Below are positions 57,392-63,997 of a stretch of DNA of 64,000 nucleotides, piece by piece. The notes below the pieces were generated by a model, which saw only the letters and a program-made list of their open reading frames with translations, made no database searches and was not told the origin of the DNA. Within the stretch, counting starts at the first letter, position 1; the number at the start of each line of letters is the position of its first letter. The stretch spans positions 9,906-73,905 of the forward strand of contig JAADGF010000099.1 in assembly GCA_013152545.1 (NCBI GenBank), written 5' to 3'. The position numbers and the translations under genes are program-made. Origin of the DNA: Gammaproteobacteria bacterium (lineage in GTDB: Bacteria > Pseudomonadota > Gammaproteobacteria > SZUA-152).

Positions 57392-58468
57392 TCATCGGTT
57401 ACGCTTTAACTTTTTTACGGCCTGCTCTGGTGTAAGTTCTGCCGCTTGGATAAGCGCATCCAGGGAGTGTTGGCGCAGATTGAGCTTACCACTATTGTTT
57501 TCCCAGCTATTCACCGTGGGCGGACTCACACCAAGCAAGCTTGAAAACTGAGGTACGGTCATCCCAAATCGCTTCCGTAACCTGGCAACGGCCGTTGCTG
57601 TGGCCATAAATGCTTTTTTGGTTTTCTTTGCTACGGTTTTCTTTTTAATTGCTTTCTTAACCACCTTTTTAACTTTCTTGTTAATTGCTGTTTTTTTAAT
57701 TATATTTGCAGCTGTATTTTTACCAGTGACACTTTTTTTACGACGGGGTTTAACGGACTCTTCCATGTCCACGCCGAACACGTCAGAAAGATCGGAGGCG
57801 GCCAACCGACGCCGTCTGCCTTTTCCGGATACAGCTGACTGTATATCCAGTTCTGTGGTAATCAACGCTTCATGATCAACATTGCGCAGCAGAAAAAGCA
57901 GTTCGGGCTGGTCATCCAATCTGGCACCGACGCCATACAGGACAGCGGCAAGATGTTTGCACATTCCGGCCCAGTCCGGGCAATCACAGGCGAGCTTTAT
58001 CTCTTTGGGCGTGGGAAACAGGCCGCTATGTTGATCCGTCACTATCGTCATGACGTTATCAGAAAAACGTCCCTGCAATAACTCCAGCATGGAACCGATC
58101 TGGCCGGCACACTGTTTACGTACGTTTTTCCATTTGTTTGCTGAGAGAGGGCTGATCGTAATATTGATATTGTAGAGTTCGGAGCCACTGACGATGGCTG
58201 CTATTTTGCCCGTCGAGATTGCAAGATGACACACAGAGCCGTTACGTACATAGGTTCGACCCCTTGGCAAACGGTTGGCATAATCACTGAATTTTTCCAG
58301 ATGATCACACCAGGCTTTACCCCAGAAGGTTTTGACGATCTTAAGCCCCTGAATCTCAATCGGTTCAGTTTTCATTCCCTGTTTGCTGAGTTTCTTCATC
58401 TCTTTGGCTGCCTTAGCACGCCGTTGTGCTACCGGCACATAAGGCGCCCATTCACCATAATAAGCCAT
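57392..58468 (-). CDS. SWIM zinc-finger protein with C-terminal lysine-rich linker and HTH (XRE-like) domain
   Basis: SWIM CDCPDWAGMCKHLAAVLYGV. K-rich KKTAINKKVKKVVKKAIKKKTVAKKTKK. HTH LRKRFGMTVPQFSSLLGVSPPTVNSWE. 11 nt downstream of the SNF2 gene. Confidence 0.8.
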   Translation of the reverse strand: MAYYGEWAPYVPVAQRRAKAAKEMKKLSKQGMKTEPIEIQGLKIVKTFWGKAWCDHLEKFSDYANRLPRGRTYVRNGSVCHLAISTGKIAAIVSGSELYNINITISPLSANKWKNVRKQCAGQIGSMLELLQGRFSDNVMTIVTDQHSGLFPTPKEIKLACDCPDWAGMCKHLAAVLYGVGARLDDQPELLFLLRNVDHEALITTELDIQSAVSGKGRRRRLAASDLSDVFGVDMEESVKPRRKKSVTGKNTAANIIKKTAINKKVKKVVKKAIKKKTVAKKTKKAFMATATAVARLRKRFGMTVPQFSSLLGVSPPTVNSWENNSGKLNLRQHSLDALIQAAELTPEQAVKKLKRNR

Positions 58469-58479
58469 ATTATCTCCCT

Positions 58480-61167
58480 TTATCCAACGTGAGTTTTCTC
58501 AATATCCAATGAAACCAGATTAAGTAATGCCTCGTTATCCATCTCTGTCAGCAGTGTCTCGGCACCACCAGTCAATACGTCGTTGGCGAGATCCGTTTTC
58601 TCATTGATCAAGGCGTCTATCTTCTCTTCCACCGTTCCCCGGCAAACGAATTTATGCACCAGCACGTTTCTTTTTTGGCCAATTCGAAACGCGCGGTCCG
58701 TGGCCTGATTTTCCACCGCCGGGTTCCACCAACGATCAAAATGGATCACGTGTGATGCCTGAGTCAAGTTAAGCCCGGTTCCCCCTGCCTTGAGGGACAA
58801 AATAAAGAAGGGCGGCCCCTCTTCATCCTGAAAACGCTCAACCCGTTTTTGTCGCTGTTTAATCGGGGTGCCACCATGTAATACCAAGCCCGGCTGGCCA
58901 AACTGCTGCGCCAAAAAAGCAGCCAACGGCGCAGTCATTTCACGGAATTGGGTAAATACCAATAATTTTTCCTGACGTGAAGCAATCTCTTCACAAAGCT
59001 CCGCCAGACGCTGAAATTTACCACTGTGCTGCGGTTTATATTCATCATCCCCCAGCAATTGCGAAGGGTGATTGCAGATCTGTTTAAAACGCAGCAGGTA
59101 AGAGAGTACCAGCCCCCGCCGCTTCATGCCATCCTGATTTTCAATGGATTTTGCCAGCTCTGCCACTGCCTGCTGGTATTGCGCCGCCTGGACTTTGCTC
59201 AGACCACAGTATGCGGACACCTCGGTCTTTTCCGGCAAGTCGTTAATGATTGAAGCATCGGTTTTAAGACGTCGCAGAATATAGGGGCCGACCAGATTAC
59301 GCAGCGGTGCATATTGATCACTCTCGCGCTCAGCGAGTGATTTCACAAACCCTTTGAAGCGCTTGGCGGACCCCAGCAGACCGGGGTTTAGGAAATCAAA
59401 CAGGGACCAGAGATCCGACAATCGGTTCTCCACCGGCGTTCCGGTCAGTGCAATACGAGCATCGGCATTAAGCAATTTTACCACTTTGCTCTGCCCGGCA
59501 ACCGGGTTTTTGATTGCCTGAGCCTCATCCAGCACCAACAGTTGCCACTTTTTCTGCTGAAGCCAGTCTTGTCGCATCAGGGTACCATAGGTGGTCAACA
59601 CCACATCAATGTTCTTCAAGGCATCACTGACATTCGCCATGGCGTCCATGGTTTTTTTGCTCTGCTGAGAGCTGTGCAAAAACAGGCAACGCAGGGAGGG
59701 CGCAAAACGCTCAAGCTCCGTTTTCCAGTTAGCGAGCAAAGAGGCAGGAAGCACCAGCAGAGAAGGTTTGTTACTACGCTTGTTTTTTAATCCTAGCAGT
59801 AGTGCAATAATCTGCATGGTTTTCCCCAACCCCATGTCATCCGCCAGACAAGCGCCTAGGCCTAACTGGGACAGCATGTATAACCAATTCACCCCCGCCT
59901 GTTGGTAGGGCCGGAGGTCTGCTTTAAGCGCCGTACCGGGATCAATAGCCTGTGCTTGAGCCGGTGCGCGTAACGCTTCTAACTGTGCCGCCAGCCATTG
60001 ACCTGGCTGAACAAAAGACCACGCCTTGCTCTCTTCCGGAATGTCGTTACCCAAATCAACCGGTGCGCCAGCCAGCAACCGCATCCCTTCGGAAAAAGTG
60101 AGCCCGCCATTTGCCGTCTCCGATTCCACCTTTTTCCAATGGGCCAGGGCTTCATTCAGCTTCTCCTGGTCCACCTCAACCCATTGCCCTTTAATAAAAG
60201 CGAGCCCCTCATTCGCCACCATGAGTTGCTTTAATTCGGCCTTACTGAGTGGCGTCTCACCGAGGGCAATATGCAATTTGAAATCCAGCAATGAATCGGC
60301 ATTGAAGTTCTTTTGATGGCGCTCGCCAATGGTAATGCCGATACGCGGCCTGCTGCGTTTTTTCCACCAGTCCGGCAGCCGCACGACCACGCCGCAGTGT
60401 TCGTACAGCGGGGTGTCCTTAAGAAACGCATAGGCCTCCCCTGGTGTCCAGACCAGGGGGTGATAGAGATCACCGGTATCAACCAGGTCTTTGATCACGG
60501 CGCTGGATTCAGCAGCGAGTTGTACCGGTGAAAGCAGGCGGATCAGGGCCTTTTTGTTTTTTGCACCCGCATATTCCTGTAAGGCGCGGCTAAGGGGTTG
60601 ATGACGGCTACGGCTCTGTACTGAAAGTTCGGGAGCATAGGTCGCCATAAAAGCAAACGGGTACTCGGAATCATTTTTATTTTCCGCCAGATGAAAACAA
60701 ACACGACCCACTTGATGCCATTGCGGTGCTCGCTTGGTTAACAGTGCATCAAGCCCGCCAACAAGCCGTATTTGCTCACAAACCCAGTCATCCAGTAAGG
60801 CGCGGATATCCCGCAGCACTGGCGCGGTGAGATACTCAGCGCCACGCATGGGTGGCGCACTCACCAGTAGCTGTGTGGTTTGTGTCGGGGTAAGTGGCTC
60901 GACGGGATCAGGCTGTTGCGGATCTGCCGGTGCCAACTGACAACGTTCACTCAGATACTGGCAGCTAAGGTCGCGCCAATATCGCAACGACGCGGTGAGA
61001 TCCGTGCTGTCTTTCCGGGCCGCCAGGGTAAACAAACCTTCACCGGTACTGCGCGCAAATGCCCTACTGACCATGACCATGTGAGTCTCTTTGTCGTTAC
61101 TGCCATCCGCTAATGGCAAGCAATGCAAATGCCCTGAGGGCAGCAGGCCGAGGTCAAAAGCTCTCAT
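58480..61167 (-). CDS. SNF2-family helicase with N-terminal SNF2-helicase-associated (SNF2_assoc) domain
   Basis: Motif I DDMGLGKT; DEAQ box LVLDEAQAIKN; helicase-C and motif VI DRAFRIGQ. N-terminal FIKGQWVEVD region. Preferred start is ATG 61167 (MRAFDLG, AAGGGA RBS); it overlaps the upstream stop by 14 nt. The track start is 61209. Confidence 0.85.
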   Translation of the reverse strand: MRAFDLGLLPSGHLHCLPLADGSNDKETHMVMVSRAFARSTGEGLFTLAARKDSTDLTASLRYWRDLSCQYLSERCQLAPADPQQPDPVEPLTPTQTTQLLVSAPPMRGAEYLTAPVLRDIRALLDDWVCEQIRLVGGLDALLTKRAPQWHQVGRVCFHLAENKNDSEYPFAFMATYAPELSVQSRSRHQPLSRALQEYAGAKNKKALIRLLSPVQLAAESSAVIKDLVDTGDLYHPLVWTPGEAYAFLKDTPLYEHCGVVVRLPDWWKKRSRPRIGITIGERHQKNFNADSLLDFKLHIALGETPLSKAELKQLMVANEGLAFIKGQWVEVDQEKLNEALAHWKKVESETANGGLTFSEGMRLLAGAPVDLGNDIPEESKAWSFVQPGQWLAAQLEALRAPAQAQAIDPGTALKADLRPYQQAGVNWLYMLSQLGLGACLADDMGLGKTMQIIALLLGLKNKRSNKPSLLVLPASLLANWKTELERFAPSLRCLFLHSSQQSKKTMDAMANVSDALKNIDVVLTTYGTLMRQDWLQQKKWQLLVLDEAQAIKNPVAGQSKVVKLLNADARIALTGTPVENRLSDLWSLFDFLNPGLLGSAKRFKGFVKSLAERESDQYAPLRNLVGPYILRRLKTDASIINDLPEKTEVSAYCGLSKVQAAQYQQAVAELAKSIENQDGMKRRGLVLSYLLRFKQICNHPSQLLGDDEYKPQHSGKFQRLAELCEEIASRQEKLLVFTQFREMTAPLAAFLAQQFGQPGLVLHGGTPIKQRQKRVERFQDEEGPPFFILSLKAGGTGLNLTQASHVIHFDRWWNPAVENQATDRAFRIGQKRNVLVHKFVCRGTVEEKIDALINEKTDLANDVLTGGAETLLTEMDNEALLNLVSLDIEKTHVG

Positions 61168-63997
61168 CCCAATGTCCCTTTTCGTTGTAAGCTTTGATCT
61201 GATCTGCAAATCGCGCTATCGCCTGTTGAGACCTCGCATTAAAATCATAACCGTGCCAGTAAGGGTTTTGCACCACATCCAAATGCACGTGTGCGATCAT
61301 ATCGAACGAAAGCAACTCATAAATATTGCGCCACTCCCCTTCCAGCCGCAAGCTCAATCCCGGATTGATAATGTAGTGACCATGCTTTACTCGCAGAAAC
61401 AGTTTACGGTTATACTTGTCATCGCGACTAACCTCATTCTTTGATAATATACTGGAGATATAAGCACGCTTTTTCCGTCTCGCCGGCAACAGGTGTTCAG
61501 GAAAATGCGCTAACACTTCTGCAAAATCGCTGCTTTGAAAAGCCCCCCGTGTACGGGCAATTTTGCTCCCAAGCCGGGTATAGAACATCGCTATCATCAG
61601 GTTAAGCATCAGGAATTCCATTAAGCGTTTATCGATCTTAATCAATCGCTCATCCACCTGAATATCAACACAATCAGGTTCCAGCAGACGATAAACGGCG
61701 GGCAACTTTCTGTCACTGTATTTCGGGTCATCCAGCGCCTGTTCCAACGCAATCAGGAAGGCGCTAAACCCGGCATTATTAATCAATTCGGTATTGGCTC
61801 CTCGCGCTATTAACTCCCTGACCAATGTTTCATTACCCAGGCGGCTAGCGATCATTAACGGTGTCTGGTTGAAAAGATTGCGAAAATCGACACCGTACTG
61901 ATCTGTTTGCCGCAGCACGGCACCAGGGTGTTTCAACTCATAGGCCATATAGTATTTTTTGTTCAACAGCCGCAGCCCTTTATTAGGGGTTCTGGCGGGG
62001 GCAAATTCGGATTTAATCAGTGCATTCAAACGGGGTTGATCCCGATAGGCCAGTGCATATTCGAACAGGGTAATTTTTGCTTTTTTGTTATTCTCCTCAA
62101 TCGCCTTGTGCTGGAGCTGCTCCAGAGTCTCACCCCGTAATACCTCCCAGGGCACGGGTTTTTGCTTCAAAATCTGATCACGGATGTGCTCTGCCTGTTC
62201 CTGTTTACCCTGCATTTCCAGTCGTTGCGCTTCGACACGCCACTCTTCCAGGCTGGAGTCCTGTTTGTCCAGTTGCAGCCCCTCTTTAGAGGGCCGCAGG
62301 TCGAGCAGATCAAACAACCGCTGTTTGGTTGAGCGTTCGATAAGATAGATATTGCGCACTGCACGGGTAATCGCCACATAAAGGGCATTGATATGGAATT
62401 TATAGATCTCCAGGGACTTGTCGCTCTTATTTTTTACCCTGGCGTAATTCAGCCCTCGCTGTAGGTCCTCATGCTCCACGCCACGGGTAATTTCCCGAAA
62501 ACGTTGCTCTTCTTGCGAGATGAAATTGTAGAGCACAATATTTTCATACTCCAACCCCTTGGCCTCCTGCACCGAGAAAACCAGCGGCGTGCCGAAACAA
62601 GCCCTGGCTGCTGTCTTGTCTTCCGGGTGCATAACAATAACGGCAAAACGGGTTGAGTGGCGGGTCTTACTGTCGAGTTCACGCTTGACCCCCTCCTCGT
62701 CCGGTAGCAATACCACCTCCCCGGTATTGTGAGCATTACTCTCCACCAGATAGTTGCTCTCCTTATCAATCGAGCCGAAACGGGCGCTCTTGATCTTCAA
62801 CACCCGGTTGGATACCTCGGTCACCTGAGGGGAGTTGCGGTAGTTAGTATTGAGAATACGGATCAGATCAGTTTGCGGCGCTGCGTCCTCCCGTCGGTAG
62901 AAAAAGCTCTTGATTTTTGACCAGGAGAAAAAATTAGGATGCACAATCTGGTTCGAATCACCACAGAGAATAAAACCGGTGGGATCACGCAGTGACCTCA
63001 AAATAAGCTGCATCTGGATATTCGTCAAGTCCTGCACCTCATCCACAACAATGAAGTCATATCGTGGCTCAATTTTAGCGAGATATTCATGACTCAATAT
63101 ATTAGCATCGTAATAGCCTTGCTCATTCATGGTCTCCAGGTATTTGACAAACAGATCATAGGCCCGCTGCCGTTCCTCATGGGAGAAAATAGATTGTTTT
63201 ATTCCCAGGTTAAGGTAATCCTGCCGTGCGAGATAAGCGCAATCAATTGCCGGGCCCGTAATCACGCCTTTAAACTCTTCAAACAGCTGATGCGCATCCT
63301 TAAGGCCGCTTGCGGTACGGTGGCGGGTAAACCAGGCGGAGAATTCCTTGAAGTGCATCTCCCGCCCGGCAGGTACCTGAATACTTTCCAAAAACTCCTG
63401 AAAGGAGAGAAAGTCAATCTGTTGATCTTCGTTACTATAATCAGCGGCGAAATAAAGCCCCCTTGAATTATGCACCAGGTAGGGGGAACGGGTAACATAC
63501 AGTATATCGCCCATGGCCTCTTTCATTTTTTCCAGCGTCAATGCTGTTTTACCGCTACCGGCTGAGCCGATAATAATCAAAGGTGGCTGGTAGCGGTAAA
63601 CATCACGTTGCACTTCGTCAAAAGAGATAACCTTATCCAGCAGATTGAAGCTGGAATGTTGACGATTGAGGTAAATCAAAGGCTCTGGCTTCACTTCATC
63701 CAGAGATGTCAGAGTGGGCATCTTGGTCTCATCCACCGTAGCACCACGATTGAGAAAACGGGATTTTTCGTAGGCATGCTGCTCTATGCACTCCAGCACC
63801 AGGGCATAGACCTCCCCCTGGTAGCGCCGAATCGTAAACAACAAACGATTGCTGCGATCCAAGCGCGCACGATAAAGGTTATCCCCCACTTTCTTGACCT
63901 CGGCCGAACGGAAATCGTCAGCCTCCAGGTAAGATCTCATTTTCTTGATTCCGGGTATTTTGGCCGGATCAATTTCATTATAAAACAAAACTTTCAT
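61154..63997 (-). CDS. SF1B (Upf1/DNA2-like, AAA_11/AAA_12-type) helicase with RelE/ParE-like N-terminal domain, ankyrin repeats and uncharacterised C-terminal domain
   Basis: Walker A GSAGSGKT, motif II VVDEVQD, GDSNQ, VFSVQEAKGLEYENIVL and VAITRAVRNIYLI. N-terminus KKVGDNLYRARLDRSNRLLFTIRRYQGEVYALVLE. Ankyrin TPLMIASRLGNETLVRELIARGAN. The ATG sits 3 nt from the window end. Confidence 0.8.
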   Translation of the reverse strand: MKVLFYNEIDPAKIPGIKKMRSYLEADDFRSAEVKKVGDNLYRARLDRSNRLLFTIRRYQGEVYALVLECIEQHAYEKSRFLNRGATVDETKMPTLTSLDEVKPEPLIYLNRQHSSFNLLDKVISFDEVQRDVYRYQPPLIIIGSAGSGKTALTLEKMKEAMGDILYVTRSPYLVHNSRGLYFAADYSNEDQQIDFLSFQEFLESIQVPAGREMHFKEFSAWFTRHRTASGLKDAHQLFEEFKGVITGPAIDCAYLARQDYLNLGIKQSIFSHEERQRAYDLFVKYLETMNEQGYYDANILSHEYLAKIEPRYDFIVVDEVQDLTNIQMQLILRSLRDPTGFILCGDSNQIVHPNFFSWSKIKSFFYRREDAAPQTDLIRILNTNYRNSPQVTEVSNRVLKIKSARFGSIDKESNYLVESNAHNTGEVVLLPDEEGVKRELDSKTRHSTRFAVIVMHPEDKTAARACFGTPLVFSVQEAKGLEYENIVLYNFISQEEQRFREITRGVEHEDLQRGLNYARVKNKSDKSLEIYKFHINALYVAITRAVRNIYLIERSTKQRLFDLLDLRPSKEGLQLDKQDSSLEEWRVEAQRLEMQGKQEQAEHIRDQILKQKPVPWEVLRGETLEQLQHKAIEENNKKAKITLFEYALAYRDQPRLNALIKSEFAPARTPNKGLRLLNKKYYMAYELKHPGAVLRQTDQYGVDFRNLFNQTPLMIASRLGNETLVRELIARGANTELINNAGFSAFLIALEQALDDPKYSDRKLPAVYRLLEPDCVDIQVDERLIKIDKRLMEFLMLNLMIAMFYTRLGSKIARTRGAFQSSDFAEVLAHFPEHLLPARRKKRAYISSILSKNEVSRDDKYNRKLFLRVKHGHYIINPGLSLRLEGEWRNIYELLSFDMIAHVHLDVVQNPYWHGYDFNARSQQAIARFADQIKAYNEKGHWDESF

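Follow-up and report, generated by a model that had tools for sequence, protein, structure and literature searches.

The SWIM-associated SWI2/SNF2 ATPases (SsoRad54 family), named in PMC5512222, combine DUF3670, SNF2-rel_dom and Helicase_C domains and are paired with a CxCxnCxH SWIM protein from an adjoining gene. This pairing is established but has no assigned function, as the earlier note on this DNA correctly stated. SsoRad54 hydrolyses ATP in a dsDNA-dependent manner and promotes strand exchange by RadA (PMC2677860). Motors of the SNF2 and/or UvrD type also operate in described defence systems: DrmD in DISARM, ZorD in Zorya, DpdE in Dpd, ArmA and ArmD in ARMADA II, which unites a Snf2-type and a UvrD-like helicase in one system (PMC13463889), and GajB in Gabija, where type II systems pair this UvrD-like helicase with a MazF-like RNase (PMC13069673). 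Here we describe a locus at the edge of a 64,000-nucleotide stretch of gammaproteobacterial DNA (the window) that carries the same SNF2 domains and an adjoining SWIM gene; in contrast to known pairs, these are preceded by and coupled to a UvrD-like helicase, HEL. We propose that two autonomous modules with nucleic-acid motors were probably fused into one operon in this lineage, HEL on the one hand and the known SNF2 plus SWIM-HTH pair on the other. The trio is a clade-specific union of two independent widespread helicase modules and does not demonstrably constitute a new, integrated defence system.

HEL, SNF2 and SWIM-HTH are translationally coupled

The three genes lie on the minus strand in the order HEL (61154–63997, 947 aa, ATG start), SNF2 (58480–61167, 895 aa) and SWIM-HTH (57392–58468, 358 aa). 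The 3′ end of HEL, GGGATGAGAGCTTTTGA, contains the SNF2 ATG (61167), so that the 14-nt overlap ATGAGAGCTTTTGA (61154–61167, minus strand) is read directly in the window sequence; an 11-nt gap separates the SNF2 stop (58480) from the SWIM-HTH start (58468). The mechanical ORF list opened SNF2 further upstream, at a TTG (61209), but the ATG at 61167 is favoured by homologues and by relatives' gene calls. Because HEL terminates within the beginning of SNF2, the three proteins should be co-transcribed and translationally coupled, and coordinates, overlap and gap all match the single packed, co-directional unit reported before. In relatives the HEL/SNF2 overlap measures 14 nt (L001, L014, L084, L006) or 11 nt (L003, L011). 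Its retention across ~20% protein divergence shows selection for co-expression; against the two-module reading, a genuine functional complex could likewise account for so tight and conserved an overlap.

HEL begins 3 nt inside the window edge, which had raised the possibility of more components upstream. In relatives, 120–700 nt of non-coding DNA and then unrelated genes lie 5′ of HEL; their loci thus hold no further conserved upstream component, and that expectation is abandoned.

HEL is a compact UvrD-like helicase with accessory domains

HEL consists of a small N-terminal α/β domain (residues ~1–90), a disordered linker (103–126), a compact UvrD/Rep/PcrA-like motor (~127–575), helical repeats including ankyrin (583–772) and a C-terminal domain with a winged helix (776–940). 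The motor displays a Walker A sequence GSAGSGKT (144–151), motif II DEVQD (319–323), motif III GDSNQIV (346–352) and motif VI VAITRA. Pfam UvrD-helicase matches with 42 bits (cutoff 23), AAA_19 and Viral_helicase1 likewise exceed their cutoffs, and UvrD_C_2 gives a weaker, sub-cutoff match. For the AF2 model (pLDDT 81.5), the best Foldseek matches are PcrA (1qhg, 1pjr), Rep (1uaa) and UvrD (3lfu, 4c2u), at ~11% identity and TM 0.41–0.45; the matches include HelD in complex with RNA polymerase as well, and NCBIfam adds a weak HelR match. Pfam and Foldseek together show that the motor is of the compact UvrD/Rep/PcrA-type SF1A class, in place of the Upf1/DNA2-like SF1B class assigned earlier. HEL has motifs I, II (DExQD), III (GDxNQ) and VI of the type common to UvrD, Rep and PcrA, but its core is compact (~450 aa) and is extended by the N-terminal domain, the helical/ankyrin repeats and the winged helix. 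Orthology to UvrD, Rep or PcrA was rejected, with NCBIfam scores of 16–29 bits against cutoffs above 900.

The ankyrin repeats reported in the earlier note were confirmed by profile matches against the PDB at ~700–757, and the C-terminal domain, which it had listed as unknown, proved to contain a winged helix. The repeats would be suited to binding a protein partner and the winged helix to binding nucleic acid. Among 25 family members, 195 residues are invariant, among them K36, R43, R51, E69, H74, Y76 and R80 in the N-terminal domain. The RelE/ParE-like fold proposed for this domain found no support from Pfam, PDB-sequence or hhalign comparisons; the domain might conceivably act on RNA in the manner of RelE/YoeB, or serve as some other catalytic or binding module at the N terminus, an assignment without statistical support.

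The HEL family has a scattered distribution, moves horizontally as a single gene and comprises a few hundred clusters at 50% identity; it is present in Gammaproteobacteria, Bacteroidota, Acidobacteriota, Chlorobiota-like MAGs and Legionellales. Homologues occur in 141 plasmid records, including Shigella/EIEC pINV, Piscirickettsia and Methylosinus plasmids; the phage collection yielded zero matches and 2.9 M viral contigs a single full-length one. Across phyla HEL has no conserved neighbour, the adjoining genes encoding AcrB, CoA-transferase, histidine kinase, TonB receptor, SecB, RidA, DUF4268, LeuRS or CHASE2-cyclase. The pINV "UvrD-helicase domain-containing / ankyrin repeat protein" (pWR100 WP_010921718.1; pSD1_197 SDY_RS23620) is a full-length homologue with 47% identity over residues 1–903 (95% of the length), the same order of N-domain, motor, ankyrin and C-domain, and the same invariant N-domain residues. 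In contrast to the window HEL, it stands by itself, with neither SNF2 nor SWIM next to it; it is oriented divergently from polysaccharide-deacetylase-capU-virK-lpxM and flanked by IS elements. We found no functional study of it in the literature.

SNF2 and SWIM-HTH form a known pair

In SNF2, an N-terminal part is followed by the Pfam domains DUF3670 (residues 235–364; PF12419, the domain previously called "SNF2_assoc"), SNF2-rel_dom (421–702) and Helicase_C (721–830), with a GLGKT motif (446) and a DEAQ motif (547). The nearest solved structure is Sulfolobus SsoRad54 (1z63, E 1.9e-128), followed by ZorD (8qy7). Judged from its sequence, SNF2 is a predicted SsoRad54-like SWI2/SNF2 dsDNA translocase. 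It scores 594 bits against the NCBIfam SCO1167/SCO6262 family helicase, below the cutoff of 1200, and orthology to RapA was rejected, the equivalog score lying far under its cutoff.

SWIM-HTH comprises a SWIM-type Zn-finger module (~1–240) with the motif CDCPDWAGMCKH (CxCx7CxH, 161–172), a lysine-rich linker (~237–290, K+R = 39%) and a C-terminal Xre-type HTH (295–330; Pfam HTH_3, 24.8 bits). The Pfam SWIM profile reaches 17.6 bits, slightly below its cutoff of 19.6, and residues 1–240 share ~52% identity with plasmid proteins annotated "SWIM zinc finger family protein" whose genes adjoin SNF2 genes. Plasmid homologues match only these residues and, unlike the window protein, have neither linker nor HTH. 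The extension noted earlier is therefore real but not peculiar to this locus: the full architecture is widespread and is the common form in gammaproteobacteria.

The trio is confined to one clade and has repeatedly come apart

Conservation of the HEL-SNF2-SWIM trio is limited to a single clade of sulfur-oxidiser-like gammaproteobacterial MAGs. It was seen only where HEL identity was at least 80%, at six distinct loci plus the window (L001, L003, L011, L014 (=L052-55), L050/51, L084, L006), and the flanking genes vary among them. The neighbourhood thus recurs beyond this genome, as the earlier note had asked to be checked, but within one narrow clade. Six HEL homologues of at least 76% identity are linked to SNF2/SWIM and three stand alone; below 76% one is linked, and 72 of 73 lie in unrelated contexts without SNF2 or SWIM nearby. 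In a rough neighbour-joining tree without bootstrap, the linked HEL loci form one clade within which the HEL-alone loci L059/L061 and L060/L002 are nested, and the linkage accordingly appears to trace to a single origin.

Within the clade, each half has been lost beside an intact partner. Ahead of an intact SNF2-SWIM pair, HEL disappeared twice, each time leaving a scar: in L049, HEL codons 1 to ~28 remain, joined in place to the SNF2 start, and in L144 the final 22 HEL codons remain 5′ of SNF2 (E 2.8e-6). Conversely, SNF2-SWIM was lost behind an intact HEL in L059, L060 and L061; 12–15 nt of the SNF2 5′ end remain after the HEL stop in L059 and L061, and the remnant match in L060 is much shorter. 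SNF2 plus SWIM-HTH pairs without HEL occur in L139, L140, L141 and L145.

Under the two-module reading, HEL would have been placed directly 5′ of SNF2 in the ancestor of one Sedimenticola/Thiodiazotropha-like clade. Extrapolating the mechanisms of both modules from homology, the SWIM protein may tether or target SNF2 to DNA through its lysine-rich tail and Xre-type HTH, and SWIM-HTH could also autoregulate the operon. Since each module remains intact after loss of the other, the coupling most likely represents co-regulation of two motors on one substrate class (whether foreign DNA, damaged DNA or stalled nucleoprotein complexes) rather than an obligate three-subunit machine. Loss of one half is, however, seen as well in decaying real multi-gene defence systems.

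Genomic context and alternative roles of the operon

An unlikely alternative is that both motors act on the cell's own DNA, the operon being an accessory genome-maintenance unit for recombination or repair (stimulating RecA strand exchange as Rad54 does) or for clearing stalled RNA polymerase or protein roadblocks, like RapA, UvrD or HelD. SsoRad54 is the closest characterised SNF2 homologue, and the structural matches of HEL to UvrD, Rep and PcrA, as well as to HelD–RNA polymerase, point the same way, as does the weak HelR match. Neighbours such as TatD DNase, Maf and MazG in the window, Ogt in L050 and catalase and NrdD in L052 would suit such a role, and HEL is inherited vertically in places, its synteny being kept in Pedobacter/Sphingobacteriales (L030, L032, L038, L047). 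Yet HEL is not a core gene but patchy, plasmid-borne and repeatedly lost; no conserved LexA-box-like site that would point to SOS control was detected 5′ of HEL in 14 relatives, no locus shows linkage to recA, uvr or mfd, and the UvrD, Rep, PcrA and RapA equivalog scores stay far under cutoff.

We also regard as improbable the earlier proposal of an integrated three-component anti-phage or anti-plasmid system. In such a system, incoming DNA would be scanned or remodelled by SWIM-HTH and SNF2 and unwound by HEL; on detection of foreign DNA by the motors, the RelE-like N-domain of HEL, in which basic, His, Tyr and Glu residues are invariant, would serve as an RNase effector for abortive infection. 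SNF2 and UvrD-like motors recur in defence, with ARMADA II and type II Gabija as precedents, and HEL has spread horizontally, with a patchy distribution that includes plasmids. GC content is 50% in the trio and 43% elsewhere in the window. Several relatives adjoin toxin-antitoxin or defence genes: Phd-ParE directly 5′ of HEL (L084), TIR-NACHT, HicB and PIN next to SWIM (L144), HigBA and AbiEii upstream and NACHT downstream (L145), MksBEF and antitoxins nearby (L141) and type I R-M at 3 kb (L140). Such genes are, however, plentiful in these genomes generally, and the surroundings are housekeeping in the window (TatD, Maf, MacB-type ABC transporter, MazG, catalase) and in L052-55 (acs, metE, nrdD, catalase).

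In agreement with the view that the composite is unlike described systems, the trio matched no PADLOC or NCBIfam defence system. PADLOC returned only generic motor cores (ZorD, DpdE, DrmD, GajB), the SNF2 hits to ZorD (1.4e-134) and DpdE (7e-120) covering just the motor (~400–885), and NCBIfam defence equivalogs scored far under their cutoffs. The defining partners ZorAB, DrmA/B/C plus methylase, DpdA-D, ArmB/C and GajA are all absent; HEL and GajB are both UvrD-like, but the HEL locus has no GajA-like partner. No nuclease, methylase, other recognised effector or self/non-self module was found at the trio, the RelE-like fold lacks profile support, and PADLOC matches to 137 genes flanking distant HEL homologues were only scattered, showing no enrichment around HEL. 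These results, the 72 lone distant loci and the reciprocal losses that leave an intact ORF weigh against an integrated system. The trio may still have a defence or DNA-surveillance role: the defence neighbours of its relatives speak for it, whereas housekeeping context, missing effector and separable halves speak against it.

Least credible by far is a neutral adjacency, in which a mobile HEL landed 5′ of SNF2 and took over its promoter while the products stayed unrelated: HEL does adjoin many unrelated genes, sometimes with 4-nt overlaps (as with SecB in L023, L024, L039, L044 and L046), the linkage arose once in the tree and either half is independently dispensable, but overlap and gene order persist in at least six diverged genomes whose flanks differ, the retention of the HEL start or end as SNF2 leader after deletion (L049, L144) indicates that SNF2 expression depends on upstream HEL signals, and a shared substrate is plausible because both partners are DNA motors. 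A second HEL/SNF2 proximity in Runella (L041), where a SWIM-DUF3670-SNF2 fusion, LeuRS, HEL, a second SNF2 and a 631-aa protein follow one another, likewise hints at a non-random affinity of HEL for SNF2 proteins.

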